From Eubacteriales bacterium (GTDB lineage Bacteria; Bacillota; Clostridia; Christensenellales; Aristaeellaceae), in assembly GCA_031549905.1 (NCBI GenBank), contig JAVBPC010000076.1:669-64668 (forward strand): a DNA stretch of 64,000 nt. The letters run 5' to 3'. Position 1 is the stretch's first letter. Each line of letters opens with the position of its first letter. The notes under the pieces were generated by a model. That model searched no databases, had not been told where the DNA came from, and saw only the letters and a list, made by a program, of their open reading frames with translations. The position numbers and the translations under genes are program-made. Below are positions 2,549-37,478 of the stretch, in pieces.

Positions 2549-2976
2549 TGATGACAGTCGGTTATACTGCGGGGGTGTTTGACTTGTTTCATATCGGCCA
2601 TCTGAACTTGCTGAAAAATGCAAAGGGCATGTGCGATAAGCTGGTGGTGGGCGTATCTACGGATGAGCTTGTTCAATACAAACACAAAGCACCCATTATA
2701 CCGTTTGCGGAGCGCGTGGAAATCATCCGCAGTATCAGGTATGTGGATGCCGTTGTTCCACAACGGGATATGGATAAAGTGGCCATGTGCAAAAAACTGC
2801 GCGCGAAGATTTTGTTTGTCGGCGATGACTGGTACGATAGCGAAAAATGGAAAGAATACGAAAAGGATTTAGGCGAGCACGAGATAAGTGTTGTGTATTT
2901 TCCGTACACGCAAGGAACGTCATCCACGCTTATAAATGATACCCTGATAAAAATGAGGAATTTTGAAAATGCATGA
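2545..2976 (+). CDS. tagD: Glycerol-3-phosphate cytidylyltransferase
   Basis: 143 aa. It has the N-terminal GxFDLFHxGH nucleotidyltransferase motif (YTAGVFDLFHIGHLNLL) and a TagD-like C-terminus (RYVDAVVPQ..., GDDW). Confidence 0.85.
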   Translation: MMMTVGYTAGVFDLFHIGHLNLLKNAKGMCDKLVVGVSTDELVQYKHKAPIIPFAERVEIIRSIRYVDAVVPQRDMDKVAMCKKLRAKILFVGDDWYDSEKWKEYEKDLGEHEISVVYFPYTQGTSSTLINDTLIKMRNFENA

Positions 2977-5366: not shown

Positions 5367-5682
5367 GGCGTCTGCTGAAAGCATAATACATGCCTTTGCG
5401 GATCTTTTGCGACATCCGCCCATACCAGAGACCCTGCAGTAAGGTGTGTTTTTCGCCGGGGTTTTGTCTGGAATGTTTGCAAGCCCAGGTGCTCAGCATA
5501 ATTTGGAAAAAATAAATGGCACCGTGCCTTTATCCCGTATTTTAAAGCCATGAATGCTTTGATATAATAACAATATATCGTACAAATCCCCACACCGGTC
5601 AGGCATCTCAAAAATGAACCGTTGACTTGTTACCCTCATTGAACACACAAACCACGGCAACACACGGAAGGAAAATCTTCAT

Positions 5683-14600: not shown

Positions 14601-14643
14601 CCTGGTGGGCATGGGCATAATCGGAGGTGACGACAATGTTTGA
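5683..14643 (+). CDS. Non-ribosomal peptide synthetase, three modules, A-T-C-A-T-C-A-T-R with C-terminal thioester reductase
   Basis: 2986 aa. Three adenylation cores are present (YTSGSTGNPKGV, YTSGTTGLPKGV, YTSGSTGKPKGV, each with YRTGD/YHTGD and GRxDxQxKxRG motifs). Three carrier domains follow (LGGDSMAA, AGLASLSAIKL, LGGSSLMV). Two condensation domains carry HHIIMDGTA and HHIVFDGAS. The C-terminus is a short-chain-dehydrogenase-type R domain (LLTGATGFLG ... YVQTKFLAE). RBS GGAAGGAAA sits 8 nt before ATG. Confidence 0.95.
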   Translation: MKQTVIASILAAARQTPGKAAVVADDRTVTYAELSTQTRRVAFQLQAQGIGRGDIVPIFLERGVDAVAAMLGVLYAGAAFCNVSTEYPPDRVAFIYRDTNAKLHIDAAWMAALGEQMAGQATASEADDTALVVYTSGSTGNPKGVALSHATICQSAHNMILGRTAEDIFMSMASFSFIAVLVDIFSPLMLGATVHVLNAQLRTDARLLADYVKEKGITTGFEPPQFAARFLEIADGALRVLLVGSERVRNLYSTRTQIINVYGASETAALVAFFSVDRPYADSTPIGFAPPGVTLYLLDDDGNKVPAGETGEICVAGQIASGYLNLPEQTAEKFIRNPYATSEHDAVLYRTGDLGRFGGDGALIYVQRKDWMLKVSGYRVEPGEIEAAIVSRSDVKQAVVKGFQNASGETSLYAVYTADTAIPPDAVLEAIRGFLPDYMLPSYLEQIPAMPLNINGKIDRKNILPPDFTKLQQAYEPPQGDAETALCEAFAKVLKLPKIGAMDDFTALGGDSMAAVRLQAALPQYALAAADILSLRTPRKLAEVLTARRPLTKAAPMETYPLTHAEKQMAAEQSMDPGSVQYNINLAQTLSGQLDVDRLTAAIQALINRHAILRSGYRMVGGEYRRFVRGDAKVILPLESCDAESLQTRIDAANKPYDLENDPLYRFTLYRLAPDLHVLHMAFHHIIMDGTAAPALLADLWALYEGKTPPAPAFDFADFAVWQQENGDDAAAEAYYASLFAGGLPENEMPTHPLRPETLPVADTDLFAALPAHSLQKAARRLGVTEYVLITAALGLTVAKYCGSEDIMLGTAMNGRTQPETADMVGMFVSTVPLRFRFSAESSAADVIRETAAMIARAQAHQGYPFPRLVTEYAPDRNPSRGPLFDVLLNHLNSLPRFELPGLSVCDRPIKRQALANDLVMETTLNGDALDIKLSYSQRLYDDGIAAGILEQFTAILQRFVKDAEMPVLDAAELPDAMRRRIIEDFHGERTDENLGKTVVDLFRAQAERTPENTAVVSGEARITYAKLDRITDNIAAHLAQQGVSAGEFVGILVNRSERMPICALGVLKARAAYVPLDPSYPPERLEFMLADAGVSIVLVDEGLESLIPGFNGKLLLTSSISTLPDAVPPEAPGPDGTFVLLYTSGTTGLPKGVRLTHANLTNFCTWYRNKHEITERDGSLAYASFGFDANTMDTYPALISGASVHIIPEEMRLDLPALDAYCAANRVTVLFMTTQLGRQFAQMKRKSRPRALSIGGESLTPLSPPDDITFYNVYGPTECTVLSTWYRIDRLYDRVPIGYPLSNMAIYVLDKHGRLAPIGAAGELCIAGRQVAAGYLNRPELTAEKFTKNPFTDEADYARIYHTGDVVRYLPSGAIDFVGRRDFQVKIRGFRVELTEIEGRIREYAGITDAAVVALDAPGGGKCAAAYIVSAAPVDVAALHDFIEEKLPPYMVPAATMQIDRIPLNPNGKIDRRKLPAPVFGGGEASGADIKARPLNILEEKIMAAVRDVLGHDQFGPDSNLLRAGLASLSAIKLMAMLDEALGCAPSVRDFMREPTVLGIENLLLERLLAGKVPEQTAPAVPATRENYPLSHNQMGVYLDCMKAPDAMNYNIPIFLALPGGVDARRLQSAVQAVIDVHPALRARLVRHGETAQQTQGNAITVIFEQMTVTEFAAYKSAFMRPFDLFKDSLCRAAVVAAPDQVHLLLDFHHIVFDGASADLFLRAVGEAYDGTAPQAERLSAFDWAAADIEQEGTQAWQDAKAYFDGKLTDFESASQLSPDMGSQNKEGLLQEAVRTVDRAQVEAFCAKHGVTPAGLFAAASAYAVSRWVNSPKVYLAMISSGRDDPRLRNTAGMFVRTLPLVIGRQSDQTVLEYIESAQRELTGAIAHENYPFTRVAADYGYTPHIMYACELGVLEAYRIGGETAVMSPPGLQKPKFPLSIHIENRDGGMVFAVQYDDGKYSGQMMAAFAETLQQALENMMARPDRPACTVSLMSKDQRALIAKFNDTCDVPEDTLHGMFEATAAKNPDRVALIACNETLTYAQLNAESNRLAHGLLARGLQPEDRVALLLRRTSRPLIAMLAVLKAGGAYIPLDPEYPEERVRYIAEDSAARFTLTENEVDAYREGQPAHNPGLAVSPCQLAYLIYTSGSTGKPKGVMIEHRGIANYVNAHPKNIHVHALATEASVLLSTTTIAFDMFLKESMTMLCNGGTLVFADEQSAHDPVRLAQMFAETGADAFNATPSVMLEYTSYPPLLDAIRRCKVIMCGAEKYPEALLKRFSGCGAQRFNTYGPTEISVSSNAQKLEEGKRITVGAPLLGVREQVVDTDGNPLPPLVVGELIIGGRGVARGYNNLPEQTAERFITVDGIRSYRTGDMSRWTPGGEIEILGRNDGQIKLRGLRIEMGEIETALAAVDGVRTCAVVIRKLQGSEHLCAYYIADRQIPAGDVRDALKQRLAHYMVPTAYLQIAAMPKTPNGKNDLMALPDPELLRSGQYVVPRGETEQKLCAIFGKVLNLDAVGAEDNFFELGGSSLMVTRVVIEAENAGLAGADGAKISYADVFAHPTPRDLAALLSGGRQEQPAKEEETYDYTAIHAMLATQGGIPPRFEKLSGTVLLTGATGFLGIHMLHALVTGEHAETVTKVYCLVRKGRFQSAQQRLKHMLFYYFEDSFDSLWDDKLFAIDGDMTNAETMARMREYPAQTVINCAANVSHFARDSASFDVNVAGVRNLIAYCRDVRARLIHVSTTSVGGFSVDGVPPRDTKLDETMLFFGQNMENQYVQTKFLAEREILESCLAGLDAKIMRVGNLMARNRDGEFQINTKGNSFLGRLRAYAAVGCFPYSAYSMLMELAPIDSTAEAILKLSCTPAQCRIFHPYNNHYLFMGDFINQMNEEGVPIQLVEDAEFDAAVSVAMQDQRRAESLTSIMAYRNMAGGKAAVPIATVCEHTVQTLLRMGWHWPETGVEYQRSFVRFLVGMGIIGGDDNV

Positions 14644-16390
14644 GCGGAGCGGCGCATTGCTGGAGCGCAAGTTCAGGAAATTCCTGCTGCCAACGATATT
14701 GACATCGATGGCCATTTCCCTGGCGACCGTGGTGGACAGCGTGATCGTGGGCAATTTGCTGGGCGAAAAGGCGCTGTCGGCAATCGGCCTTTCGGGGCCG
14801 GTGCTGTACAGCCTGAACACGATCTACCTGCTGTTCGCGGTGGGGGGCGTGACGCTGGCCTCCATCGCCAGGGGGGAGCGCGATACCGCGAAGGCGAACA
14901 GCATCTTTACGCTGTCCATCGGCGTGGGGCTTGCCGTGATGACGGTGTTCATATCCCTGCTGCTTATCTTCATGGGGCCGATATGCCACGCCTTGGCACA
15001 AAACAATGCAGAGCTGGAATCCATGACGCGCAGCTACCTGACGCCGATGGTGCTGGTAGGGCCGACAATGATGCTGATCATGGGCATGGCGCAGTTCATC
15101 CGCACGGATGGCAGCCCGAAGATCTCCGCCGCGATCGCGCTGGTGGCAAACATCGTCAACCTGATACTCGATTACATCCTGATCAGGTTCTTTGGCACCG
15201 GCATCGCGGGCGCGGCGTGGTCCACGGTCATCGGGTACCTGACTGGGATTCTGATGCTGATTCCCTACCTGCACTCAAAGAACCGCAACTTCCACTTCAT
15301 CAAGCCCGCGCCCCGTGCGGTGCGGCAGGTTGGGAACATCGCACGCACGGGCACGCCCAAGGCGCTGGTGCAGTGCCTGAGCTTCTTAAGAACGCTTGCG
15401 CTGAACACCATCATCCTCAGCACCATCGGCGCGCCGGGCGTTGCCGCGCTGACCATCTGCATCAACGCGCTGATGATGGCGAACATCTTTATCGGCGGCA
15501 CAAACGATACGCTGCTGCCCATCGTCGGCACGCTGTTTGGCGAAAAGGATTATGTGGGCATTCGCTATTCGATCAAGTCGGGCGCGAAGGTGCTGGTGGG
15601 CGCGTGCGCGGTGATGGTGGCGCTGTTCCTGGTGTTCCCGGAGGGTATTTGCCGCCTGTTCGGCATTGTGACACCGGAGGGCGTGTCTTCCGCGACCACG
15701 GCGCTGCGCCTGTACGCGCTGAGCCTGCCGGTGTACAGCGTGAACATCCTGCTGCAAAACTTCTACCAGACCACGGGGCGGCTTACCAACGCCAATGTGG
15801 TTGCGTGCTCCAACGGGTTTGTGTTTGTGGTGCTATTCGCGCTGATCCTGGCCCCGGCGAACGCAAGCCTCGTGTGGCTGTCGTTCCTGCTGTCGGAGGT
15901 GTGCACGTTCCTGGTGATCCTGGTGATGGGGCGGAGGGTGCGCAGGCGGGACGGTGTCACGGGCCTGCTGCTGCTAAAAGAGGATGCCCGCACCGGCGCT
16001 GAGCTTGACCTTTCCGTTCCGGGCACGGAAGCCGCCGCCGCGGCGCTGGCTGAGCAGTGCACTGATTTCTGCGCCGCGCAGTTTGGCGATGCCGCGCTTG
16101 CGGGCCGTGCGGGCGTTGCGGCAAAAGAGCTGGCAGGCAATATCGCCAAGTACGGCTATGCGCCGCAGACGGGCGTGATGGATGTGCTGGTTCGCCGCGA
16201 AAAGGATGCGCTGATCCTGCGGTTCCGCGATGACGGCGTGCCCTTTGACCCCACCGCGCAGCAAGAGAAAAATGGCGGCATTGGGCGGGTACGGGCAATA
16301 TCGGACGGCATGACGTACACCCGGCCCGTCGGGTTCAATTCCACGCTGGTTACGTTCCGGTTGGATCGTGCGCCGGAAATGCGGCAGTGA
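14627..16390 (+). CDS. MATE-family efflux transporter fused to a C-terminal GHKL/HATPase_c-like (anti-sigma-factor-kinase-like) domain
   Basis: About 440 aa of 12-TM MATE (NorM/DinF-like) sequence is followed by about 150 cytoplasmic residues with GHKL-like boxes (AKELAGNIAKYGY; RFRDDGVPFDP; GGIG). The start is probably ATG 14636 (RBS GGAGGTG), which overlaps the NRPS stop at 14641-14643. Confidence 0.7.
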   Translation: MTTMFERSGALLERKFRKFLLPTILTSMAISLATVVDSVIVGNLLGEKALSAIGLSGPVLYSLNTIYLLFAVGGVTLASIARGERDTAKANSIFTLSIGVGLAVMTVFISLLLIFMGPICHALAQNNAELESMTRSYLTPMVLVGPTMMLIMGMAQFIRTDGSPKISAAIALVANIVNLILDYILIRFFGTGIAGAAWSTVIGYLTGILMLIPYLHSKNRNFHFIKPAPRAVRQVGNIARTGTPKALVQCLSFLRTLALNTIILSTIGAPGVAALTICINALMMANIFIGGTNDTLLPIVGTLFGEKDYVGIRYSIKSGAKVLVGACAVMVALFLVFPEGICRLFGIVTPEGVSSATTALRLYALSLPVYSVNILLQNFYQTTGRLTNANVVACSNGFVFVVLFALILAPANASLVWLSFLLSEVCTFLVILVMGRRVRRRDGVTGLLLLKEDARTGAELDLSVPGTEAAAAALAEQCTDFCAAQFGDAALAGRAGVAAKELAGNIAKYGYAPQTGVMDVLVRREKDALILRFRDDGVPFDPTAQQEKNGGIGRVRAISDGMTYTRPVGFNSTLVTFRLDRAPEMRQ

Positions 16391-24004: not shown

Positions 24005-25135
24005 TTACTCGTTCCCTCCCTTGTTTGTTGTCGGAACATTGTTGGTTTGCGGCAACATGGTATCCCCAATGCCCTCGCTCGCTTCCGGGAAGTTGGCCAG
24101 CAGCGCGGCGCCAACGGAATCCATTTCCGCCAAGGTTTCCTGCATACGCTCATAAATGGCCATGAATGTATTCTTGCGCACGGGCTCATGGTCTTTATCT
24201 TCAAAGTAGTCATCAAGCGAAAGCGTCGATTCGGGTATCGAATCGGATGTTGACCATGTATCCGTGTTCAGCATCAGCGGCAGGCCGTCCTTATCCCCGA
24301 TGATGACCAGCTTGGCGTTGCTCGACTGCGCCAGCTCCAGCGTAGCCTGGATGCCGATAAACCGCAGGTACGCTTCCGTCATGCCCTCATTGACAAGGGC
24401 CTGCGAGAACCGGACGGACTCCGAATCAACATAGTTGCGCTTGTACTTTTCCACGGCTTCCAGCACCCGGTAGCGTTCCGCCAGAACGTTTTGCTCGGCG
24501 ACGAACTTATCGGATATGGCGCTGGACATTGCTTCGGGCAGTTCCACGCTGCGCACCAGGATGACGGTAAACTGGAACGGCGCGTCGGACAGCGTTTCAT
24601 TCAGAAGCTGCATAACCTCTTCCTGAAGCAACAGGGGATTGCCGTCGTACAGGCGGCTTTGCTCATACTGGCCGATGATGCTGCGCACAACGGATGTGAC
24701 GGCCGGGTCGATGACGTTGTTGGCATAATCCCCGCCCAGCGTGGTATGCAGCTCACCGACGCGGTCCCTTTTGATGCGCCAGATGACGGTCATCTCCACA
24801 TTGACGGCCAAACCGCCCTTGGCAAGCGCGGTTACGCTGTAATCCCTGGACTGCGACCTTGCGTCATAAGGGATGATCGCATCCCATGGGAAAACGAACC
24901 GCACACCCTCGTTGCAGTATACATTTTGCAATGTACCGCCAAAGAAACGGCTGAAATATACCCCGACATAGCCCGCCTCAACGGTTGTGGTGAAAAATGG
25001 CCAACACACCACCACCGCCAGTGCCAGGACAAGTACGATCACGAATAACCGTGGCTTGTCGGCGAACAGTGCGGCAAACCGCTTTTTCAGGGATTTTCTT
25101 TTTTTGGTTTTTGGCTGCTCAGGTTCATTTGTCAT
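24005..25135 (-). CDS. SPFH/band-7 (stomatin/prohibitin/HflK-C family) membrane protein
   Basis: 376 aa. A basic N-terminus is followed by a single TM (LFVIVLVLALAVVVCW) and then an SPFH-domain start (VEAGYVGVYFSRFFGG...). The C-terminal half is coiled-coil-rich. RBS GGAGAG. Confidence 0.7.
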   Translation of the reverse strand: MTNEPEQPKTKKRKSLKKRFAALFADKPRLFVIVLVLALAVVVCWPFFTTTVEAGYVGVYFSRFFGGTLQNVYCNEGVRFVFPWDAIIPYDARSQSRDYSVTALAKGGLAVNVEMTVIWRIKRDRVGELHTTLGGDYANNVIDPAVTSVVRSIIGQYEQSRLYDGNPLLLQEEVMQLLNETLSDAPFQFTVILVRSVELPEAMSSAISDKFVAEQNVLAERYRVLEAVEKYKRNYVDSESVRFSQALVNEGMTEAYLRFIGIQATLELAQSSNAKLVIIGDKDGLPLMLNTDTWSTSDSIPESTLSLDDYFEDKDHEPVRKNTFMAIYERMQETLAEMDSVGAALLANFPEASEGIGDTMLPQTNNVPTTNKGGNE

Positions 25136-25704
25136 ACGGTTGCGCTCTCCGGCTGTGCGGTTTTCTTCCGCTTAAGCATTTTGCCAATCCATTCGCGGCT
25201 GTTCAGATACGCCGCCTTGAAGCTGGCTTTCATGGCGTCAATGTTTGCGTTGACAAAGTCGCCGCCGTTGTTAAAGTGAGCGGCGAACATCCTGCCCACC
25301 GCGTTGGTGGAAAGGCCGTTCAGCGCGGGCAATGTGGCGAACGCCATAGAGGTGCCGATGAGCGGAATGCCCATCACCAGCAGTTCCACGGTTCCCGTTG
25401 CCAGCACGGGCAGTGCGCCGCCGGCTGCCGCGGCGATGATTTTTTTGGCGATATCTTCTTTAAATTCTACGCCATACAGCTTGGAAAGGTTGCGCACCAT
25501 GTTCAGCTGAATGGCTGTCACGGATGCCAGGCTGACCAGCGGCATCAGCGTGACGCCAATGCCCATGGAAGCATAAACGCTGGAAGTGATAATCTTTTCC
25601 ACCTTGGCCGCATCAACAGCCACGGTGCGCGCGCCGGTGTCACCCGAAGCGGTTTCGGCCTGCGCCTGCACGGCTTCGGCATCGAATTCGGTGCTCATGT
25701 TCAT
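25132..25704 (-). CDS. Hypothetical membrane-associated protein (possibly DUF697/YcjF-like)
   Basis: The start was chosen at MNMSTEF (RBS AGGAGG), not the ORF-track M. It has Gly/Ala-rich amphipathic segments. It is the first gene of the long minus-strand operon and overlaps the SPFH gene by 4 nt. Confidence 0.4.
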   Translation of the reverse strand: MNMSTEFDAEAVQAQAETASGDTGARTVAVDAAKVEKIITSSVYASMGIGVTLMPLVSLASVTAIQLNMVRNLSKLYGVEFKEDIAKKIIAAAAGGALPVLATGTVELLVMGIPLIGTSMAFATLPALNGLSTNAVGRMFAAHFNNGGDFVNANIDAMKASFKAAYLNSREWIGKMLKRKKTAQPESATV

Positions 25705-25896
25705 CCTCCTGGATTCTTTTGACTTTATATATTCTAATCTGTTTCTCATTTTTCATCATATCATAATCTTGTCGAAAAAGGAAGTATTATGGGTTACTTT
25801 GCAAGAAATATTTATATAGATTTTGTCACCGGAAAAGCGGTACGATTTTCGCATCACCAACAATTTTGCTTGCCATATGGCTTGCTTTTCATGTTT

Positions 25897-27372: not shown

Positions 27373-28374
27373 TTATTCCCCAGCGGTATCGGGTGCATTT
27401 TGCATGATATCCAGCTGCCGCAATATTCTCTCCTTCACCTGCGCGACGAACGCCGGCGGCTCCAGCGCCCTGACCGTTGGGCCAAAGCCCAGCACGCGGA
27501 TCAGCAGCTCGGTTTCCTCCATTACATCGTAATAGATGCGGCAAAGGTATGTGTTGCTTGCCTCATCATATTCCGTTTCCTTCCGGTAGGCCGCGAACTC
27601 CAGCATGGCGCGCTCCAGCGCGTTGCGCTCGGGGTAGATGCGCAGCAGGAAGGATGGCTGGGTTTGCGGCTGTTCGAAGTACCGCAGCGCCTGCGCAATA
27701 TCCATCGCGGGCGGGTTGTCAGCAACCTGCACATGCGTAATGCGGGATAGGTTCAGTATGGCGCGCCGGTTCCGGGTTTTGAAACAGGCTGTGGCCAGCA
27801 AACGGAACTTGTCATCCTTCGCGGAATAGTTCAGCCGCCACGGTATGTATGCGCCGTGCGTAAAGCCGCCCTTTCCGCCCGCGTACTCGATGTACAGCGG
27901 CGTATGCACCTCTGTCGCGTCAAGGATGACGCGGAACCGCTCGCGATACCGCGCGTCGTCATAGGGGTCGCCATCCGAAGCGGCATCGTAGATATGGAAG
28001 TCATCCGGGGAATACAGCGGCGCAGTATCCAACGCGCCGTCCAGGGCCTGTATCTGCGGGTCTGTGAGGAAAAGGCGCATGCGCGGGTCGGCAAGCAGCG
28101 CCTTGAGCCATGCCTGTTCCAGCGTGCTCATCGGGCGCGCGGTATCGCCGCAGGCAAGCGCGGAGTAATAGCGCCCGCCGCGCGTCTGAAGCAGCGGCCA
28201 TTCCTCCGAAATCAGCTTTGGCAGCAGATGGAACGCGGTATCCGCAAAGCCGCTGCCCTCGATGATGGATTCGATTTCCGCGCGTGTCAGGCCGCCGCGG
28301 TGCGCCCCCGCAAGCACGCGCGCCAGCACCGTGTAATAGCAGCCGTAAATCTCGGAAAAAAGCTCCATCCTCAT
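27373..28374 (-). CDS. WYL-domain protein (putative ligand-sensing transcriptional regulator), second of a tandem pair
   Basis: WYL-like core YIPWRLNYS...KFRLLATAC...RNRRAILNLSRITHVQV (P..L.Y / YL.A.C / R.F.L.RI pattern). Start at MRMELF (RBS GGAGGA). It overlaps the upstream paralog by ATGA. Confidence 0.55.
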   Translation of the reverse strand: MRMELFSEIYGCYYTVLARVLAGAHRGGLTRAEIESIIEGSGFADTAFHLLPKLISEEWPLLQTRGGRYYSALACGDTARPMSTLEQAWLKALLADPRMRLFLTDPQIQALDGALDTAPLYSPDDFHIYDAASDGDPYDDARYRERFRVILDATEVHTPLYIEYAGGKGGFTHGAYIPWRLNYSAKDDKFRLLATACFKTRNRRAILNLSRITHVQVADNPPAMDIAQALRYFEQPQTQPSFLLRIYPERNALERAMLEFAAYRKETEYDEASNTYLCRIYYDVMEETELLIRVLGFGPTVRALEPPAFVAQVKERILRQLDIMQNAPDTAGE

Positions 28375-29585
28375 TCCTCCAGGTACATGGCCGCCATGCG
28401 CGCAATATCGTTGCGGAAGCGGTTCACGACCTCTTCGCTGCTGCTTTCCAGCGACAGGATACGCCCGCAAAATGTCTTGATCCAGGGGGACATCTCGCAT
28501 ACATCGTAGGCTACTTTGGTGTAGCGCACGGTCTGTGCGTCCAGCCGCTCCACCGCACCGCCCCGCCCCTCGCGGATCAGGCGGTCCTGCACATACTGTT
28601 CCGTGCGCTCATCGATGCGCAGCGTCATGCACAGCGTATCGCCAAACCTGGCCCGGCTGAAACTGACGCCCCAAAGCTTGTCATAGCACCCGGCAAGCTT
28701 TTGCCGCAGCGCGGGCGCATCCGGGTAGGGCTCCAGCAATTTCACCGAAAAAGCGTAATCCAGCCGATAGCACGCAAAGCGCCTGCGTGCCGGGTGATAC
28801 GCGCAAACATACCGGCGGCCCGTGGCGGCACTGACGAAAATGCGAAGGGGCACCACGCAGGTTGCACCGGCGTGCCAGGCGCGGATGCTGCGGTTTTCAA
28901 AGGATACCGCGCGGTTTTCGCGGATGGCTTCAAGCATCGTCAGCAGCACCCCGCTTTCCAGTGTGTGCACGATGTAATGGTGCTTGTAGCAAAAAAGACT
29001 GTTGCTCCGCCCGGCGTTATCCAGCAGAAAGCTGCCAATTTCACCGAAGGGCGCCGCACCCTGGAAGAAAGATACGGCATCCCAAAGCGAATCGGAATCC
29101 GGCGCCATGGGGGATAGTGAGTACACCAGCGCCCTGCCCTGCTTTTCGGCGCGCAGCAGCCCCATGCGGACATACTCACTTAACTTGTTGCGCACGGTTT
29201 GAATGTCGAAAACCCGCCCGCCGCGCGCGCAGACCGCGTCACACAGCGGCTCCACCGCCGACGCGCTCTCCCGCAGGCAGTCCAGCAGCAGGAAGTGCAG
29301 CAGCACATCGTTGTCGGTGAAGCTCTTGGATTTCCACGCGCTGTACAGCGGGTTTTCCGATAACTCGGAAGCATCCAACGATACAAAAACGCGCTTGCCG
29401 CCGCTGCCGTACGTCCAGCGCATGGCGCTGCCCAGGTAGCTTTCAATGCGCCGCCGTTCGTTGTCGTATGTGCGGGCGGATTTTTGCCGGAAGTCGGTGC
29501 GCGATTTGAAGCCGTAAACATAGAAATCCCGCATGTACTCGCGGATCTTCTCAAAGCTGCGGGTCAGTTCCGAAAAGGCAGCCAT
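28371..29585 (-). CDS. WYL-domain protein (putative regulator), first of a tandem pair
   Basis: 404 aa. WYL-like core VPLRIFVSAATGRRYVCAYHPARRRFACYRLDYAFSV. It is divergent from rtcB with a 143-bp shared intergenic region. Confidence 0.55.
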   Translation of the reverse strand: MAAFSELTRSFEKIREYMRDFYVYGFKSRTDFRQKSARTYDNERRRIESYLGSAMRWTYGSGGKRVFVSLDASELSENPLYSAWKSKSFTDNDVLLHFLLLDCLRESASAVEPLCDAVCARGGRVFDIQTVRNKLSEYVRMGLLRAEKQGRALVYSLSPMAPDSDSLWDAVSFFQGAAPFGEIGSFLLDNAGRSNSLFCYKHHYIVHTLESGVLLTMLEAIRENRAVSFENRSIRAWHAGATCVVPLRIFVSAATGRRYVCAYHPARRRFACYRLDYAFSVKLLEPYPDAPALRQKLAGCYDKLWGVSFSRARFGDTLCMTLRIDERTEQYVQDRLIREGRGGAVERLDAQTVRYTKVAYDVCEMSPWIKTFCGRILSLESSSEEVVNRFRNDIARMAAMYLEE

Positions 29586-29728
29586 GTGCGCATCACTCCC
29601 CCAGCAAAAGTGTATCGCAGATGCCCAATATTTTCAAGTTCGCAAACTTTTTTAGAAGATAAACGCACCTGCGGCTGGTAAGATGTGCCCATCGAAAGCA
29701 AAGCGCAACGGAAATGGAGGGCGATACC

Positions 29729-30961
29729 ATGATCATCATCGAAAAAGCAGACCGGCAGGTACCCATCAAGGCATGGATTGACAGCGAAAACAGCGTAGAG
29801 GAAAGCTGCCTGGAGCAGGCGTACCACTTGGCGTCACTGCCCTTCATTCACAAATGGGTGGCGCTGATGCCCGATACCCACACCGGCATGGGCATCCCGA
29901 TTGGCGGCGTTATTGCCACCGACGGGGCCATCATTCCAAACGCCGTGGGCATGGATATCGGCTGCGGCATGGGGTTTATCGGCACGGACCTGCCTGTCGA
30001 GGTTTTAAAGGAAACGCAAACCGGCAGCGGCAGCCTGGTACAGACCATCGTGGGCGATCTGCTGCGCAGCATCCCCGTGGGCTTTTCCCACCACAAGAAA
30101 AGCCAGCCCTGCGGGACGCTGGACCGGGCGCGCGAAGAGATGGAGAAGTACGAAGCAAACCCGGAGCTGGTGGAGCAGATCGAAGCCGGTTACCGTCAGG
30201 TCGGTACGCTGGGCGGCGGCAACCATTTCATCGAACTGCAGGAGGATGACGAGGGTCTGCTGGGCATCATGGTGCATTCCGGCTCCCGCAACTTCGGCAA
30301 GCGCATCTGCGATACGTTCCATTTGGCCGCGCGCGAGCTAGCCGCCAAAATGGACGGCGCGGCGCCCGATGACTGGCGGATGGCGCATTTGCCGCTGGAT
30401 AGCGCGGCGGGACAGCAGTACATCCACTGGATAAACCTTGCGCTTGACTTTGCCGCCGAAAACCGCGCGCGGATGATGGCCGTGGCGCAGGAAGTGCTGG
30501 AGCGCACCGTCGCCAAATACACCGCGGCAACGTTTGGCTACACGCGGCACATCAACTGCCACCACAACTACGCCGCGCTGGAGCGCCACTACGGCAAGGA
30601 TGTGTGGGTGCACCGCAAGGGCGCAACCCGCGCGCTGGCTGGAGAGGCGGCGGTAATCCCCGGCGCGATGGGCTCGTACAGCTATGTGGTGGAGGGGCTT
30701 GGCAACCCGGAAAGCTTTTGCTCGTCATCCCACGGCGCGGGCCGCCGCTACGGCCGGAAAGCCGCGCTGGCGAAGTTTTCTGCCGAGCAGGTGATGGTCG
30801 ATCTTAAGGCGCAGGGCGTCATCCTTGCCAAGCACAACAAGGCCGATGTGGCCGAGGAAAGCCGCTTCGCTTACAAAGATATTGATGAAGTAATGGGGCA
30901 GCAGCGCGACCTGGTGCGGCCGGTCAAGCGGCTGAAAACCATCGGCGTTGTGAAAGGGTAA
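29729..30961 (+). CDS. rtcB: RNA 3'-phosphate/2',3'-cyclic-phosphate-5'-OH ligase RtcB
   Basis: RtcB hallmark blocks are present: MPDTHTGMGIPIGGV, GCGMG, GGGNHFIELQ, HSGSRNFG, NCHHNY, HRKGATRA and SSSHGAGR. The start was chosen at ATG 29729 (RBS GGAGGG). Confidence 0.9.
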   Translation: MIIIEKADRQVPIKAWIDSENSVEESCLEQAYHLASLPFIHKWVALMPDTHTGMGIPIGGVIATDGAIIPNAVGMDIGCGMGFIGTDLPVEVLKETQTGSGSLVQTIVGDLLRSIPVGFSHHKKSQPCGTLDRAREEMEKYEANPELVEQIEAGYRQVGTLGGGNHFIELQEDDEGLLGIMVHSGSRNFGKRICDTFHLAARELAAKMDGAAPDDWRMAHLPLDSAAGQQYIHWINLALDFAAENRARMMAVAQEVLERTVAKYTAATFGYTRHINCHHNYAALERHYGKDVWVHRKGATRALAGEAAVIPGAMGSYSYVVEGLGNPESFCSSSHGAGRRYGRKAALAKFSAEQVMVDLKAQGVILAKHNKADVAEESRFAYKDIDEVMGQQRDLVRPVKRLKTIGVVKG

Positions 30962-31004
30962 TTTTTTGATGATAAGGGCGGTTTCGCCTTTATGATACCA
31001 CCTG

Positions 31005-31282
31005 TTCTCCTATCCGCAGGGCTCATGATGCCCTCGGGGTGCCCAAGGGTTCCGTACGGCATGCCGGAGAAACGGGTCTTGATCGCGGTAAAACCCGCGG
31101 CGAAAACTGTGTATATGAGGGTTCAATTCCCTCCCCCGAAAGGGGTAGCGTAATGGCACGCACACAGCCAAATGGTTAAGCTCAGAGGAGCCGGGGTTCG
31201 AATCCCCATCCAACCTGAAAAGGTTGACACACACCCCTGGCCGGCATCCGGCGCAACAAAGAGGGCATGCCCTTTTTGAAGC
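31005..31282 (+). ncRNA. Putative structured small RNA with tRNA-like D-arm and T-arm modules (candidate Y-RNA-like/YrlA-like tRNA mimic), own promoter and terminator
   Basis: Promoter-like TTGATG-N18-TATGAT lies at 30968-31000. Two T-arm-like hairpins carry T-loop consensus (GAGGG-TTCAATT-CCCTC at 31117-31133; CGGGG-TTCGAAT-CCCC at 31192-31207). There is a D-arm-like GTAGCGTAATGGCACGC at 31146-31162. Several short hairpins are followed by the intrinsic terminator GGGCATGCCC-TTTTTG at 31262-31282. No plausible ORF lies on this strand, and no complete cloverleaf (no matching acceptor stem) could be drawn. Confidence 0.35.
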
Positions 31283-31456
31283 GCAGCATCCGGCCTGCCG
31301 GGCGACGGGGATACCGCCCGCGCAAGCGCAGCCCATGGCCTTTCCGCCGCCAACTGGGGGCGGAAGGCAACCGGCTGCGGGAGGCGCGCGCTGAACCGAA
31401 GCCCCGCAGCCAGGATGCGGATGCCGGTCCCAAAGGGACAAAAAGGAGAGAAGAAA

Positions 31457-32600: not shown

Positions 32601-34622
32601 CTATTCGCGATAATCGCTTACGATCTTCACATCCGGCAGATTTACCTTGAGCAGCGCGATCTCTTCAAGGGTCAGCGCATCGTTTTCCGACAGATCAACC
32701 CATTCAAGCGCGGTCAGCGCGTACAGCGGCGACAGGTCGGAAACCAGGCAATCCCGGAGGCTGAGGGTTTGCAGGTTCACCATGCCGGCAAGCGGGGTTA
32801 GGTCACTCACCTGCGCGTGATCCAGATAGAGCGTATCCAGCAGCGTCAGCTTCGCAATCGGCGTGATATCGGAAAGATCGAAGTTGTAGGAGGCATCCAG
32901 GCATGTGAGCGCCGTAAGTCCCGCGATCGGCGAAAGGGCGTCAATTTCGCAGTTGCGGATATCAAGGTAGGTCAGCCCCGTCAGCGCGGAAAACGGCTCA
33001 AGGCTTTCAAGGCATATATCGGCCACTTCCAGGTAGCGCAGCGCGGGCATTTCAAGCAGCGGCGAGAAGTCCCGCAGCCCTATATTGTTTGATACGCCCA
33101 GCGATTTCAGGCGCGGAAGGCCGGCAAGCGGCGTCAGGTCTGTCACATAATTGAGCCACAGGTCCAGCGACTCCAAGGTTACAAGGCCGGAAAGCGGTGT
33201 AAGGTCCGTGATATCGTTGTCGCTCAGATCAAGCCATGTAAGCGCCGTAAGCCCAGCAAGCGGCTCAATTCCTTCATCGCCTAGCATGCAGTACGCCAGG
33301 TCCAGTTCGTCAACGTTCAGCGGGACCGCCATGGTTTCATCCCCGATCTGGATCGATACCGTTTCGCTATCGACAAAACCGCCGGGCGTGCCTTCCCATT
33401 TTGCGCTGCCATCCAATGGCACGGTGGTAAACTGCTGTTCCCCCGTCCACCAATCGGTGACCGAGTAAAACACCGCCGCGCCTTCCCCGACGCCGTAGGA
33501 GCCCAGATACTCCGCGGGGCCGGCATCCAGCCTGTACAGCGGCGTGCCGTCATACGCGTGCAGCACAAGCTCCGCGCGCTCAAGATCATGCGGTTCAAAG
33601 GAGGCGTCGTGATACCACACGGCCAGCCCGTAGGGCGTGGCGAAATACAGGTCGGAATCGATGGAAAGCGGCGCGTGTCCGCCCTTTTCGGCATCAAATC
33701 CGTATAGCGCGCCGAACAGGATGCGCGGCCAATCCATATCCGAAAAGGGCAGCGTAAACCCGTCATCCAGGTTTTGGTAGACGATGTGCGGCCCCTGTGA
33801 AACCAGCCCGCGCACGCCGCATTCGGTCAGCTTTTCAAGGCCGGTGCCATCCAGGTTTACGCGGTAAAGCCTGGGGTACGAAAGATCAAGCATTTCGTTC
33901 TCATCGTCGCTCACGCAGCTTACAAAGGGTACATCGGCATAGGTTTTGACATCGTTCAGGTTCGCGAAATAGATCGCGCCGTCGTGGTATACAAACTCCG
34001 TTGCGGCGACGCCTTCTATTTCCTGTACGTCGCCGCCATCCATTTCGCAGGTGTACAGCGTGCCGGTCGGCCCGGAAAACAGCAGGCGGCCGCTGTCCGC
34101 CATGCGCAGGATCGGCCCCGCGTACGGCGCACGGTCCGCTGAAACGCGCGGCTCATCCGGCACGCCCAGCCACATGGTTTCCATATAGTCTTCCCCAAAG
34201 AAGCGCACGCCGACGTCTTCCTCTTCTCCCCCAAAGCCCGCGCCGCTGATCAGGTACGCCCAGTCATCGCCATCGACAATCAGGTAATAGGGGGGCGTGT
34301 CCTCGTAATCTTCCCACTCATTATCCCATACCGCGTTGTCATACCAGGACCATCCGGTAGCGCATTCGACGATCATCCAGGGGTCAAGCGGAGATACGCA
34401 CACCGCGCCGCGCCCGGTAAGCGCCAGCGAAGCGCCCAAAATATACGAGCTGGGGATGCCCTCCCCTTCCAGCGGCTGCCCCTCGCCAAGCCCTTGCGGG
34501 GTTTGCAGCCTGGAAATGCGCGGATTCCCCGCGGCGGGCGTTGCTTCCTGCGCAAAACCCTGGCAGGTGGCCAGCAGCAAAAAGGCGGCCAGGGCAATGC
34601 AAGTCATCTTTCTCAAACGCAC
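32601..34622 (-). CDS. Secreted leucine-rich-repeat (internalin-like) protein with N-terminal DUF5050-like domain
   Basis: GTG start at 34622 (RBS AAGGAGG) gives the signal peptide MRLRKMTCIALAAFLLLATCQGFAQEA. The C-terminal about 250 aa are 22-residue LRRs (LxxLxxLDLSxNxITDLTPLAGL...). The N-terminal domain is paralogous to 37514-38692. Confidence 0.7.
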   Translation of the reverse strand: MRLRKMTCIALAAFLLLATCQGFAQEATPAAGNPRISRLQTPQGLGEGQPLEGEGIPSSYILGASLALTGRGAVCVSPLDPWMIVECATGWSWYDNAVWDNEWEDYEDTPPYYLIVDGDDWAYLISGAGFGGEEEDVGVRFFGEDYMETMWLGVPDEPRVSADRAPYAGPILRMADSGRLLFSGPTGTLYTCEMDGGDVQEIEGVAATEFVYHDGAIYFANLNDVKTYADVPFVSCVSDDENEMLDLSYPRLYRVNLDGTGLEKLTECGVRGLVSQGPHIVYQNLDDGFTLPFSDMDWPRILFGALYGFDAEKGGHAPLSIDSDLYFATPYGLAVWYHDASFEPHDLERAELVLHAYDGTPLYRLDAGPAEYLGSYGVGEGAAVFYSVTDWWTGEQQFTTVPLDGSAKWEGTPGGFVDSETVSIQIGDETMAVPLNVDELDLAYCMLGDEGIEPLAGLTALTWLDLSDNDITDLTPLSGLVTLESLDLWLNYVTDLTPLAGLPRLKSLGVSNNIGLRDFSPLLEMPALRYLEVADICLESLEPFSALTGLTYLDIRNCEIDALSPIAGLTALTCLDASYNFDLSDITPIAKLTLLDTLYLDHAQVSDLTPLAGMVNLQTLSLRDCLVSDLSPLYALTALEWVDLSENDALTLEEIALLKVNLPDVKIVSDYRE

Positions 34623-34635
34623 TTGTGATCCTCCT

Positions 34636-35583
34636 TTACAGACCTGGGTCAGGCAGCGCTCTTTGCAGGGCATCAAACCCGGTGATTTCATACAGCCCCA
34701 TCCAGGCATCCAGCAGCATGCCATCCTGGAATTCAAAGCCCGAGATGACCGTGCCATCCGCCAATGTAAAATAGTAGTTCAGGTAGTCGTCGGTATGGCC
34801 GTTTTTCACGTTTTCTTCCAGTACGGAGATATTGCAAAGCGCGTCAAACACTGCCTGAATCGTCGCGGGGTCCGTGCTGGTGACGGGTTCTCCGCTCCCT
34901 TCGCCGTCATGGCGCACGGATACGGAAACCGGAAAGTTTGTTTTGATGTTATCGACAAACCATGAAACCGTCAGGTCATCAAGGAACCAGAACAGCGGCA
35001 CGCCCCCTTCCACGACAGAAAAGGTATACACCGCGTTGTATGAATCGCCCAGGTTGATCACCCGCGTGCCGGGAATGATGGGGTCCTCAAACATGCGGGC
35101 GCGAATGTTTTTCAGGGAGAAATCCTCCACCGTGCCGTCGCTGCGCACCGCGTATTCGCCGATCAGCCCGGAGAACCCGGCGTACGGTACATCCCCGTAG
35201 TTCAGCGCGTCGTCTATCGCGGAAAAGGAGACCACGCACGCCACATCTTTGTAGTAATCCTGCCAGATTCGGCGCTGCACGGCCCCCGCGTTCTTGGGCT
35301 CATCGCCGATCAGGTACACGGTGGTCTGCACAATTTGCAGGTAGCAAATGCGCGACAGGGGGCCCGCGTCAGGGTCATCCGGCCCGCGCGAACAGGCATC
35401 CAGCAGGCTTTGCAGCGCAAGGTCGGCATACTGGGTGACCAGCGCCCGGGCCTGCGCATCGAGGGTGTCAATCGCCTCGCCGAACGCGCCCGGCAGCACA
35501 TGCCCGGATTCAGCCGCCCGCGCCGGGGCGCACAGGGCAAGCGCCAGCGCGCAAAGAACCAAAAGGGGACTCGATTTTCTCAT
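34636..35583 (-). CDS. Secreted hypothetical protein
   Basis: Start at MRKSSPLLVLCALALALCAPARA (RBS AGGAGG), a signal peptide with AXA site. No motif recognised. Confidence 0.5.
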   Translation of the reverse strand: MRKSSPLLVLCALALALCAPARAAESGHVLPGAFGEAIDTLDAQARALVTQYADLALQSLLDACSRGPDDPDAGPLSRICYLQIVQTTVYLIGDEPKNAGAVQRRIWQDYYKDVACVVSFSAIDDALNYGDVPYAGFSGLIGEYAVRSDGTVEDFSLKNIRARMFEDPIIPGTRVINLGDSYNAVYTFSVVEGGVPLFWFLDDLTVSWFVDNIKTNFPVSVSVRHDGEGSGEPVTSTDPATIQAVFDALCNISVLEENVKNGHTDDYLNYYFTLADGTVISGFEFQDGMLLDAWMGLYEITGFDALQRALPDPGL

Positions 35584-35612
35584 GTAACGCACCTCCTGTT
35601 TGCCATGAAGCA

Positions 35613-37478
35613 TCATGCCGAATATACATCCCAGCGAATTTGCGTGATCATGCCGCCGCGTATCTCGAAACTGACCCAGCACGCCTGCTGATAGCTGTTG
35701 GAAACGTTATAGTCCACGGTGACAAGCTCTCCGGCGATGAATGTTGCGCTGCCAAACCGCTGAAACGCGCCGTCGCTTTCTTGATACAGATAGATTTCGT
35801 CGTTTTGCACATCAAGTGCTTCCCCGGCGCGGTCGTTTTGGAATGCGGCCAGCAGCGTTTCCAGGGAATCGCCGACACGGATGCCGCGCGGCCCGGCGAG
35901 CGCATCGGTATCGATGCGGATTGTGATGCCGGAAAAGGTGTCCCCCGCCTTGGCAAGCGCCACATCGCCAAACGGGTAGGTTAGCGCGACGGTGTAATCG
36001 TCCTCATCCACGCGAATCGGCTGGCCAAAGTTTGCGGTGACGACCTCCAGGCCGGGAAAGCGGAAATCCTGTTCGCCCGCGTTATCGGTGGCAATCTGAA
36101 AGTGCGGAAAGTACTGGAAATCTGAAAGCGCAAGCGGCTGCGCGCTTTGCGTCGCTTCTCCGGCCGGCGCACCGGGGTCAAGCACCACGCCGACAAATAG
36201 CGGGATTCCCTCAGCCGCGATACAGAAGAAGAACGGCCGGTTCACGATGAATCGGATCGGCTCCTCTTCCTTCTGGCCCGGCGCGGCCATCGCTTCGCCA
36301 AACAGCTGCGTGAGCGCTGCGGCCTCGATGCCGGTTTTATCCACCGTGATGTGGGTATCCTGCCGCGCGGCGGTAAGGTACACCGGCCCATCCGCAAGGC
36401 CGGAAAAGTCGGCGGCCGCTGGCGAAAAGGCCGCCCGGACGCCAAGCGCGTACAATGCCGTTTCCAGACCAAACGCCGTATCAAAGGCGAACTGGGGGAA
36501 CTCCGCGTGCAGCTTCCGCAAATAGCCGGTACCGGGACTGATAAGCTCCTGCGCACCCCCTTGCCGTGTCAGCAGCGGCAGAAGGCCGGTATCCTCATCT
36601 GGCAGCACAATCGTCATGTCAAGGCCGCCTTCCAGCGGCAGGCGTGCCCATGCGTATCCATCCCCAAGGCCGTATGGCGCGGTAAGATCGGTGCGCAGGA
36701 AATCGGTTTCGATCTCACGCCCGCTTAAAAGGGTGAATGTGCGGCGTGCGGAAAAGACCGGCTTTAGCCACGGCGTTTTGAGGTACACCGTGTTAAAGAT
36801 CGCAAGCCGCTGATCTTCCTTTGTGGTGATCGGCGGGTTCAGCAGTCCGCGCGTTTTTTCCGCCACCCAGTGCGACATGTGGCCGGCGGTCGCCGCGTCG
36901 CCAAAGTCCGCGCGGTACAGCTCGCCGTACTGCGCCGCCGCGGTGTCAAGGAACGCCGCGTTGTAACTGTAGCCCGCGTGCAGCCACACGGCGTGGGCGA
37001 TGATCAGCGCGCAGTCCTGATCACCCAGGTGGATGTTGCGGTATAGCGCGCCAGCCATTCCCGCCGGGTTCGCACCGGCCGCCACCGCATCCGTCAGGCC
37101 AAGCGCGGCGTACAGTTCCGCCTGCGCCGCACCGCGTGTGCCGCCTGCCGCCAGCAGCAGCGCGTAGTACAGGCTAAGCGGCGAGTAGCACAGGTTCTTG
37201 CTGGGCGTGCCAAGCAGCGCCGCCGTAGATTCGCCTGTGAAGCGCATGATCCCGGCGAGCAGCTCGCCCGCGATCGGATTCTCCGCCTTTTGCGCGCGAA
37301 ACGCGATGTAATCGCCGGTTGAGGCGGCCACCGGCGCATCCGGCAGGAATACCGCTTCCGGCCCGGCGGCGAAGGCGCTGCTGACGCCGCAAAGCATCAG
37401 CGCCGGCAGCGCTGCGGAGGAAGCCAGCAGGCACACGGCCATCGCCAGCGGCAAAAGGCTTCTTTTCATGGTTTTCAT
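35613..37478 (-). CDS. Secreted serpin (serine protease inhibitor) with about 185-aa C-terminal extension domain
   Basis: Signal peptide MKTMKRSLLPLAMAVCLLASSAAL. Serpin signatures are NTVYLKTPWLKPF, the hinge/RCL HITVDKTGIEAAALTQ, and the C-terminal FIVNRPFFFCI. An additional non-serpin domain follows the serpin core. RBS GGAGG. Confidence 0.85.
   Translation of the reverse strand: MKTMKRSLLPLAMAVCLLASSAALPALMLCGVSSAFAAGPEAVFLPDAPVAASTGDYIAFRAQKAENPIAGELLAGIMRFTGESTAALLGTPSKNLCYSPLSLYYALLLAAGGTRGAAQAELYAALGLTDAVAAGANPAGMAGALYRNIHLGDQDCALIIAHAVWLHAGYSYNAAFLDTAAAQYGELYRADFGDAATAGHMSHWVAEKTRGLLNPPITTKEDQRLAIFNTVYLKTPWLKPVFSARRTFTLLSGREIETDFLRTDLTAPYGLGDGYAWARLPLEGGLDMTIVLPDEDTGLLPLLTRQGGAQELISPGTGYLRKLHAEFPQFAFDTAFGLETALYALGVRAAFSPAAADFSGLADGPVYLTAARQDTHITVDKTGIEAAALTQLFGEAMAAPGQKEEEPIRFIVNRPFFFCIAAEGIPLFVGVVLDPGAPAGEATQSAQPLALSDFQYFPHFQIATDNAGEQDFRFPGLEVVTANFGQPIRVDEDDYTVALTYPFGDVALAKAGDTFSGITIRIDTDALAGPRGIRVGDSLETLLAAFQNDRAGEALDVQNDEIYLYQESDGAFQRFGSATFIAGELVTVDYNVSNSYQQACWVSFEIRGGMITQIRWDVYSA

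Follow-up and report, generated by a model that had tools for sequence, protein, structure and literature searches.

Does the spacer downstream of rtcB, the gene for the RNA 3'-phosphate ligase, encode an RNA with a fold of its own, and, if so, to which known RNAs is it related? We addressed this question in a 64,000-nucleotide (nt) stretch of DNA from an Eubacteriales bacterium (assembly GCA_031549905.1, contig JAVBPC010000076.1); the whole stretch is called the window below. In the window, rtcB (29714 to 30961, plus strand; Pfam RtcB E = 1.2e-107) is followed on the same strand by a 495-nt spacer and then by the gene for a Band-7/SPFH (stomatin-like) protein, with its true start at 31457 and its end at 32545 (Pfam Band_7 E = 8e-22). 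The spacer holds a non-coding RNA of several domains, or a structured part of the operon, about 270 to 430 nt long, giving the order rtcB, RNA, Band_7. As judged from sequence comparison, this is a real, conserved RNA that mimics transfer RNA (tRNA) and is most suitably classed as a YrlA variant associated with Band-7. A preliminary description of the region had correctly placed rtcB immediately upstream of the RNA, and had overlooked both the Band-7 partner gene and several of the RNA domains.

Predicted permuted tRNA fold of the core module

The core of the RNA, module 1 (31107 to 31167, plus strand), was delineated by covariation and a covariance model as a circularly permuted tRNA-like domain of the YrlA type. 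The module is closed by a stem, CUGUG/CACAG (31107 to 31111 with 31163 to 31167), inside which follow a 5-nt variable loop (31112 to 31116), a T-arm, GAGGG-UUCAAUU-CCCUC (31117 to 31133), a closed acceptor-like hairpin of 4 base pairs (bp), CCCC-GAAA-GGGG (31134 to 31137 with 31142 to 31145), and a D-arm, GCG-UAAUGGCA-CGC (31148 to 31161), which is preceded by UA and followed by A. The two T-loop sequences and the D-arm-like element noticed earlier are present (GGTTCAATTCC at 31120 to 31130, GGTTCGAATCC at 31195 to 31205, and GTAGCGTAATGGCACGC at 31145 to 31161, the first and the last lying in module 1). The accompanying statement that no acceptor pairing or cloverleaf could be drawn has to be revised: the GAAA-closed hairpin, located between the T-arm and the D-arm, and the closing stem together give a permuted cloverleaf, and the acceptor stem had escaped notice because the unit is circularly permuted. 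In this predicted fold, module 1 corresponds to a tRNA that is cut open where the anticodon loop would be and sealed at its acceptor end, with a tRNA elbow and with neither a CCA end nor an anticodon.

Shuffled sequences give an expectation of 0.09 copies of the 11-mer GGTTCRAWTCC, whereas the window has three, and the strict 5-bp T-arm pattern has a single occurrence on both strands of the 64-kilobase (kb) window, at 31117. A third exact GGTTCAATTCC (16332 to 16342) lies inside an open reading frame (ORF) of the MatE family, has no T-arm, and looks like a chance match.

For comparison, 80 rtcB loci were collected by a search with the window RtcB, taking one genome per species; they are referred to by number (L001 and so on). 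The best match is 82% identical, and the loci are nearly all from Clostridia, chiefly Lachnospiraceae, the most distant few being from Enterococcus, Vagococcus, and Listeria. T-arm motifs are found 120 to 440 nt downstream of rtcB in about half of these loci. ARAGORN calls a tRNA downstream of rtcB in one locus alone, L034 (6960 to 7244), where genuine tRNA-Glu(TTC) and tRNA-Cys(GCA) genes directly follow rtcB in place of the tRNA-like RNA and no Band-7 gene is present.

Module 1 from 31 loci was aligned with MAFFT without fitting to the structure. In this alignment (A2), 92.7% of the cells are paired, versus 36 to 51% with slid partners; both sides change in 16 of the 19 pairs, and the covariation score is 0.69, against at most 0.16 for the slid controls. 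Covariation in the rtcB-downstream regions, which the preliminary description had named as a check, is present. The tertiary signature of tRNA is retained as well. The columns equivalent to the Levitt-type 15:48 pair (A2 columns 12 and 54) are paired in 100% of the sequences (CG in 22, UA in 7, GU and UG in 1 each), with U31116:A31153 as the Levitt-like pair of the window, and the GG columns of the D-loop and the UUC columns of the T-loop are invariant. A covariance model built from the 31 sequences, R1, scores the window module at 62.1 bits. Because of this covariation, module 1 is taken to be an RNA whose tRNA shape is under selection, and not a tRNA gene in decay.

Association of the tRNA-like module and a three-way junction with Band-7

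On the 5' side of module 1, a three-way-junction domain is predicted at 31000 to 31077 (plus strand). Helix P1 pairs 31000 to 31010 with 31066 to 31077, P2 occupies 31014 to 31037, and P3 pairs 31039 to 31043 with 31058 to 31062 and encloses an inner hairpin; the conserved junction nucleotides are ..GCGGUGCC.. and GGYAU-NCC. P2 and P3 were predicted by RNAalifold from an unfitted MAFFT alignment (n = 30), with compensatory changes in 14 of 17 pairs, and the complementarity of P1, evaluated sequence by sequence, averages 7.35 bp versus 5.06 ± 0.34 bp in shuffles. The model of this junction, R2, scores 56.3 bits at the window.

The two models differ in where they match. By tblastn, 40 of the 80 loci have a Band-7 homologue on the downstream side of rtcB, and the rtcB-Band-7 spacer has an R1 match in all 40. 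Among the other 40 loci, 33 have no R1 match except true tRNA genes, and the 7 with a match each carry another partner gene. In five of these, the partner is a DUF2828 plus DUF7788/vWA protein, of a family annotated as "Ro-like" in mycobacteriophages; in two, it is a 724-amino-acid protein with a below-cut-off match to the NCBIfam MXAN_6230/SCO0854 family RING domain-containing protein. R2 matches 38 of the 40 Band-7 loci and one truncated remnant (L061), and it has no match in the Ro-like, RING, and phage loci. Fisher tests of the co-occurrence with Band-7 give p of about 1e-15 for the tRNA-like module and about 6e-19 for the junction, values that are generous in that the loci are related. 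These distributions indicate that the tRNA-like part is a shared module and the three-way junction a Band-7-specific one. In the remnant, L061 (7246 to 7300), P3 and the GGUAUACC junction directly follow rtcB, and the tRNA-like units and the Band-7 gene are lost.

The loci with other partners have RNAs of different organization. In L042 (4050 to 4460), tandem tRNA-like units in normal order lie upstream of the DUF2828 plus DUF7788/vWA ("Ro-like") gene and rtcB, and similar tandem units are found in L033, L041, L049, and L058. The L042 units have true acceptor stems and expansions of 50 to 60 nt instead of an anticodon arm; one of them scores 49 bits over 113 nt with the Rfam tRNA model, and ARAGORN calls none of the units of this type. 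As shared YrlA modules, the R1 matches in the Ro-like loci were down-weighted, since a neighboring T-arm and D-arm in L042 can mimic the order T-arm, acceptor stem, D-arm (T-AS-D); the argument for a shared module therefore rests mainly on the phage YrlA described below and on the RNAs of L011 and L013. In L011 (9500 to 9650), and also in L013, a textbook YrlA-like RNA with a long stem joining its 5' and 3' ends, a T-arm, an 8-bp closed acceptor hairpin, a D-arm, and a U-run lies downstream of rtcB and the 724-amino-acid RING-family-like protein; these loci have no Ro or Band-7 gene, and an NYN-LOTUS gene is located upstream of rtcB.

Relation to YrlA and other tRNA-like RNAs

The earlier view that the element is neither an ordinary tRNA nor a transfer-messenger RNA (tmRNA) was confirmed: ARAGORN finds no tRNA or tmRNA in the window, and over the whole window every Rfam family stays below its gathering score. 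The comparison with Rfam that had been suggested gave a mixed outcome. YrlA (RF02553) is indeed the best Rfam match for 31085 to 31235, but with 17.4 bits (E = 0.19) it stays far below the gathering score of 69. This match covers only model positions 23 to 86, which comprise the tRNA-like core but leave out the terminal stem that is presumed to bind Rsr, and it emerged only in a 151-nt search with laxer filters, being unlisted in the 561-nt and whole-window searches. The Rfam tRNA model reaches 13.9 bits at the locus versus a gathering score of 29, and the tmRNA and mascRNA models match T-arms only, at 8 to 14.5 bits (tmRNA, 11.4 and 8.1 bits on the two T-arms). The RNA that follows the Ro-like gene of Mycobacterium phage Snenia (L081, KT281794.1) is matched by Rfam YrlA with 39.3 bits (E = 6.5e-06; gathering score, 69), which shows that a model of YrlA is included in Rfam 15, and by R1 with 61.7 bits (E = 9e-20).

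The T-AS-D architecture of YrlA was defined by Chen et al. 2014 (PMC4201824), together with the caveat that tandem tRNAs can imitate this order; in that study, YrlA-type RNAs of Salmonella and Mycobacterium are stable, trans-acting, and processed from operon transcripts. Module 1 of the window has the same permuted succession of stem, variable loop, T-arm, closed acceptor-like stem-loop, D-arm, and stem, the same tertiary signature (15:48 covariation, D-loop GG, UUCRA T-loop), and the same setting in an rtcB repair locus. Further criteria of the YrlA family are a location within about 4 kb of an Rsr/Ro60 (TROVE) gene on the same strand and, in vivo, binding to Rsr and modification by TruB and DusA. 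The window has no Rsr/TROVE gene, as had been stated before: Pfam detects neither a TROVE nor a DUF2828 domain in the window ORFs of at least 280 amino acids, and tblastn of the window with a Ro-like protein as query returns nothing. The window RNA also lacks the long terminal stem bearing GNCGAAN0-1G, a stem presumed to be the Rsr-binding module, and has the three-way junction on its 5' side instead; it adds a second T-arm unit and a 3' domain, its acceptor-like stem has just 4 bp, and its score stays below the Rfam gathering score. The sequence GGCGAAAA (31099 to 31106) was considered as a GNCGAAN0-1G motif and rejected, the match being inexact and not conserved in relatives. Taken together, the topology, the covariation, the R1 score of the phage YrlA, and the identity of the best Rfam match support the proposal of a YrlA-like tRNA mimic that is tied to rtcB and works without Rsr.

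A system of this composition had been predicted. As reported by Wang et al. 2018 (bioRxiv 10.1101/312249), Burroughs and Aravind 2016 proposed that Band-7 and a tRNA-like non-coding RNA beside RtcB are functional equivalents of Rsr and YrlA. In the passages of Wang et al. that treat it, this RNA, b7a-tRNA, strongly resembles authentic tRNA and had no experimental validation as of 2018, and it is noted that YrlA occasionally adjoins a Band-7 gene and b7a-tRNA occasionally adjoins Rsr; a search of the literature on RtcB, SPFH, and tRNA-like RNA (b7a-tRNA) found nothing beyond that paper. Compared with b7a-tRNA as described there, the window RNA is alike in adjoining RtcB and a Band-7 gene, in the window and in 40 related loci, and unlike in its permuted order, its closed acceptor, and its lack of an anticodon arm. 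By the criteria of the family itself, the RNA falls outside Rfam YrlA. Nor does it represent a new class; the preliminary suggestion of a new tRNA-like class was too strong, because, by the account of Wang et al., the RtcB, Band-7, and tRNA-like RNA system, including YrlA-type RNAs beside Band-7, was predicted in 2016. The three-way junction, the second T-arm unit, and the 3' domain are absent from Rfam 15 (the content of the 2016 study is taken from Wang et al. 2018), and the RNA, missing from Rfam, is therefore unseen by genome annotation.

Phage Snenia carries both kinds of scaffold-RNA pair. A band-7-like gene is directly followed by a canonical tRNA-Tyr(GTA) gene (2214 to 3285), an arrangement that may be an example of the authentic-looking b7a-tRNA form, and about 1.2 kb beyond the tRNA-Tyr gene the gene for a "Ro-like RNA binding protein" is followed by the YrlA-type RNA (4456 to 6133).

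Other tRNA-related RNAs are more distant. In a tRNA gene or pseudogene, the acceptor helix joins free 5' and 3' ends and an anticodon arm leads from the D-arm to the T-arm, whereas in the window RNA the acceptor-like helix is a local GAAA-closed hairpin and no such arm exists. With tmRNA and mascRNA, the window RNA shares a T-arm and a D-loop/T-loop elbow, but it has no aminoacylatable acceptor end or tag reading frame (ARAGORN negative); tmRNA combines its tRNA-like domain with such a frame and with pseudoknots.

Additional RNA domains

The conserved structured sequence spans about 31000 to about 31425 and ends near the Band-7 start at 31457, so the earlier estimate of roughly 270 nt was too short. 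All of the elements that follow lie on the plus strand. The three-way junction is separated from module 1 by a linker hairpin, CGCGG-UAAAAC-CCGCG (31084 to 31099), seen in the window fold and by sequence comparison; a hairpin is found at this position in many relatives, with varying sequence.

Module 2 (31170 to 31207), on the 3' side of module 1, is a reduced unit that may be called a half tRNA. It consists of a D-loop-like AAAUGGUUAA (31170 to 31179) without a stem, a hairpin GCUC-AGAG-GAGC (31180 to 31191), and a second T-arm, T2, of 4 bp, GGGG-UUCGAAU-CCCC (31193 to 31207), which contains GGTTCGAATCC. The tRNA-like domain of tmRNA likewise has a D-loop without a D-stem. The T2 stem covaries, with 88.9% of the cells paired and compensatory changes at pairs 2 and 3, and a fifth pair is not conserved; an A(A/G)UGGYA motif with a covarying hairpin of 3 to 5 bp is present in 18 relatives. 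T2 is followed in the window fold by a hairpin CAACC-UGAAAA-GGUUG (31211 to 31226), which covaries with its counterpart in the closest relative, L001 (ACCC-UGUUUA-GGGU), the sole locus to share it; it is not kept in Lachnospiraceae. A minimum-free-energy fold that pairs CUGUG with CACAC (from 31229) and encloses modules 1 and 2 was rejected: a second downstream complement is found in 6 of 31 relatives, versus 5.3 by chance.

The number and form of these units vary among relatives. L002 (7443 to 7700), L003 (7563 to 7800), and L007 (6636 to 6790) have three or four units of T-arm, closed acceptor, and D-arm in tandem rather than one and a half. Short hairpins with 7-nt anticodon-like loops are found in L050 (7483 to 7532), L055 (4034 to 4088), L054 (7530 to 7585), L022 (7487 to 7510), L039 (7448 to 7470), and others; in the loops CUGUCAA, CUGUUAA, and CUGUAAA the "anticodon" would read GUN, UUUUUAA occurs as well, and the window has no such loop.

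The 3' domain (31283 to 31425) is a long irregular hairpin that ends at the ribosome-binding site, about 30 nt before the Band-7 start codon. Its fold has a z-score of -4.67, and two long-range helices show compensatory changes in 14 of 15 pairs (RNAalifold, 10 sequences). An internal loop of the domain contains the near-invariant GGAUACCG (31309 to 31316), which recurs as an exact 8-mer in 29 relatives. Long-range pairing of GGAUACCG with the 5' GGUAU was considered and discarded, as the window has GGCAU, which is compensated within P3 (G-C) and would mismatch AUACC.

Transcription signals

The preliminary description regarded the element as an independent small RNA with its own sigma70-like promoter and a clean intrinsic terminator. 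On the upstream side, promoter and hairpin scans identify an element at 30974 to 30996 (plus strand) in which a hairpin GGCG-GUUU-CGCC (30977 to 30988) is followed by a -10-like TATGAT (30991 to 30996); it is possibly a promoter, a leaky rtcB terminator, or both. The spacer between the proposed TTGATG (30966 to 30971) and TATGAT is 19 nt, not 18, and the promoter scan itself reports ATGATA-16-TATGAT with 9 of 12 matches. A hairpin with a TATAAT-like hexamer 1 to 13 nt upstream of P1 is found in about 18 of 30 relatives, including the nearest ones of the window. In at least five relatives, however, just 16 to 18 nt separate the rtcB stop codon from the start of the RNA; a promoter would not fit there, and these RNAs must be co-transcribed with rtcB. 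A promoter is thus plausible but not universal.

The supposed terminator is marginal. The hairpin GAGGG-CAUG-CCCUU (31261 to 31279, plus strand) is followed by UUUG only, is not called by the scan, and is missing from L001, and a comparison of about 38 relatives showed no conserved terminator in the interval from the tRNA-like units to Band-7. With a promoter that is not universal and a terminator that is not conserved, the family as a whole does not qualify as an independent, cleanly terminated small RNA. It is more likely that the RNA is processed out of an operon transcript, as in the Salmonella rsr-yrlBA-rtcBA operon, or serves as a leader.

Possible functions of the RNA

The presence of the junction in Band-7 loci, with a tRNA-like part that is common to other loci, parallels the split of Y RNAs into protein-binding and effector modules. 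Ro60-Y RNA particles (metazoan Y RNAs, Deinococcus Yrn1) are modular in the same sense, with one RNA module for the ring scaffold and another for an effector, and their RNAs are likewise encoded beside the scaffold gene and linked to RNA repair or decay. They differ from the locus described here in that the candidate scaffold is SPFH/Band-7 rather than a TROVE ring, and a three-way junction takes the place of the bulged terminal helix as the presumed binding module. The window Band-7 protein is similar to stomatins in the PDB (e.g., 3bk6 at 7e-14); the PDB stomatin and QmcA entries have 16 to 26 chains each, and inspection of the N-terminal sequence by eye reveals no evident membrane anchor. 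Divergent from rtcB lies a gene for a WYL-domain protein (28371 to 29585, minus strand; Pfam WYL 4.9e-06), adjoined by the gene for a 375-amino-acid protein with a weak WCX match (27373 to 28500, minus strand; 1.1e-03). Most of the 80 loci retain these two genes, which resemble a PafB/PafC-like regulator pair, on the upstream side of rtcB, with or without the RNA; the two are probably the regulators of the rtcB-RNA-Band-7 cassette.

By analogy with the Ro60-Y RNA particles, we see about an even chance that the RNA acts in trans, as part of a WYL-regulated rtcB-RNA-Band-7 repair cassette in which it would serve as the adaptor RNA of a Band-7 scaffold that supports repair by RtcB. The three-way junction, possibly together with the GGAUACCG domain, would be the handle that binds the soluble-looking, ring-forming SPFH/Band-7 protein, and the tRNA-like elbows would recruit RtcB, tRNA-handling factors, or damaged tRNA-like substrates. 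The resulting particle would be a scaffold or cofactor for RtcB-dependent repair under WYL/WCX control. Its RNA would probably arise by processing, with either the rtcB operon transcript or that of a weak internal promoter as precursor, and not as a cleanly terminated stand-alone small RNA.

Several observations weigh against a trans-acting RNA of this kind. The putative handle role of the junction is deduced from co-occurrence alone, and a single-sequence AlphaFold2 model of the Band-7 protein is unusable, with a predicted local distance difference test score (pLDDT) of 35. No homologue of the window Band-7 protein is detectable beside phage tRNA-like RNAs (no match in phages by tblastn, and no similarity to the band-7-like protein of Snenia by BLASTP), and some of the weaker R1 matches in the Ro-like loci probably bridge the T-arm and D-arm of adjacent normal-order units. 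In addition, the absence of a conserved terminator before Band-7 and the extension of the structure to the ribosome-binding site fit a cis-acting leader equally well. A leader of this type, which we consider unlikely overall, would make the whole 495-nt spacer a structured 5' untranslated region that controls read-through into Band-7, mRNA stability, or translation, with no free RNA and with the tRNA-like units as sensors or docking sites for a tRNA-binding factor. Such an arrangement agrees with conserved structure that stops only some 30 nt short of the Band-7 start codon, with the co-transcription with rtcB seen in several relatives, and with the position of the RNA, which is always upstream of the Band-7 gene and on the same strand. 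However, YrlA-type RNAs with the same module act in trans as stable, processed RNAs in Salmonella and Mycobacterium (Chen et al. 2014, PMC4201824), the module of L011 and L013 has a long terminal stem and a U-run of its own and lies downstream of the partner gene, which is not the position of a leader, and no conserved expression platform (terminator/antiterminator or helix sequestering the ribosome-binding site) could be shown.

The tRNA-shaped fold, with a module 1 that has no anticodon loop or CCA end, would also suit a decoy or damage sensor, i.e., a competitive inhibitor or sacrificial target of tRNA-directed ribotoxins such as anticodon nucleases and tRNA-modifying toxins; in a variant of this idea, cleavage and re-ligation of the built-in substrate would report damage to the WYL regulators, and Band-7 would be a mere neighboring effector. 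Hughes et al. 2020 suggested that YrlA may competitively inhibit an anticodon nuclease, and, according to a reference cited there, WYL domains are ligand-binding regulators of defense systems. The hairpin before T2 has anticodon-like 7-nt loops in Lachnospiraceae (CUGUAAA, CUGUUAA, UUUUUAA), but its loop is 4 to 5 nt and not anticodon-like in the window and the closest relative, the anticodon-like triplets vary between relatives, and the Band-7-specific three-way junction and the strict co-occurrence with Band-7 are left unexplained; we consider a decoy or sensor rather improbable. Finally, the units could be functionless, as decayed tRNA genes, the remnant of a tandem tRNA array, or an attB scar. 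The weak Rfam tRNA match (13.9 bits), the true tRNA-Glu and tRNA-Cys genes at the equivalent position in L034, and the ability of tandem tRNAs to mimic T-AS-D (Chen et al. 2014) could be cited in its favor; the covariation contradicts it, as compensatory changes maintain every helix of the permuted fold, including the closed acceptor and the closing stem, across 31 divergent sequences. The extra domains are conserved as well, the co-occurrence with Band-7 is strict, and a Pfam scan of the flanking genes finds no integrase domain or other mobile-element signature, so that we regard decay as extremely improbable.

The locus pairs a YrlA-type tRNA mimic with a soluble-looking stomatin/SPFH scaffold in place of Ro60. 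The division between the junction and the tRNA-like module offers concrete elements to mutate for the 2016 prediction, as relayed by Wang et al. 2018, in which SPFH proteins resemble Ro60 in acting together with a cognate RNA as repair cofactors. We propose more tentatively, and with some doubt, that the RNA constitutes a distinct family absent from Rfam, in which a YrlA-type module is fused to a Band-7-specific junction handle, a second elbow without a D-stem, and a 3' GGAUACCG domain, and that sister loci pair a similar module with other scaffolds, namely, a Ro-like DUF2828-vWA or a RING-domain protein. If true, this would point to a general plug-in design made up of a tRNA-mimic adaptor and a scaffold-specific handle, and the RNA would be the first one characterized as a partner of an SPFH/stomatin-type protein. 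The compact cassette is common in gut and environmental Clostridia, and culturable carriers include Hungatella hathewayi DSM 13479 (L039), Anaerocolumna xylanovorans DSM 12503 (L006), Petralouisia muris (L026), and Clostridium sp. KNHs205.

Neighboring genes

A second, different Band_7/SPFH gene (24005 to 25135, minus strand) adjoins a DUF697 gene (24005 to 25749 region) about 6 kb from the RNA, and neither R1 nor R2 has a match near it. Further upstream, the window encodes a 2,986-amino-acid non-ribosomal peptide synthetase with a terminal reductase domain (5683 to 14643). Immediately beyond the Band-7 gene, the opposite strand carries genes for a leucine-rich-repeat protein (718 amino acids) and a serpin-domain protein (621 amino acids), at 32601 to 37478.

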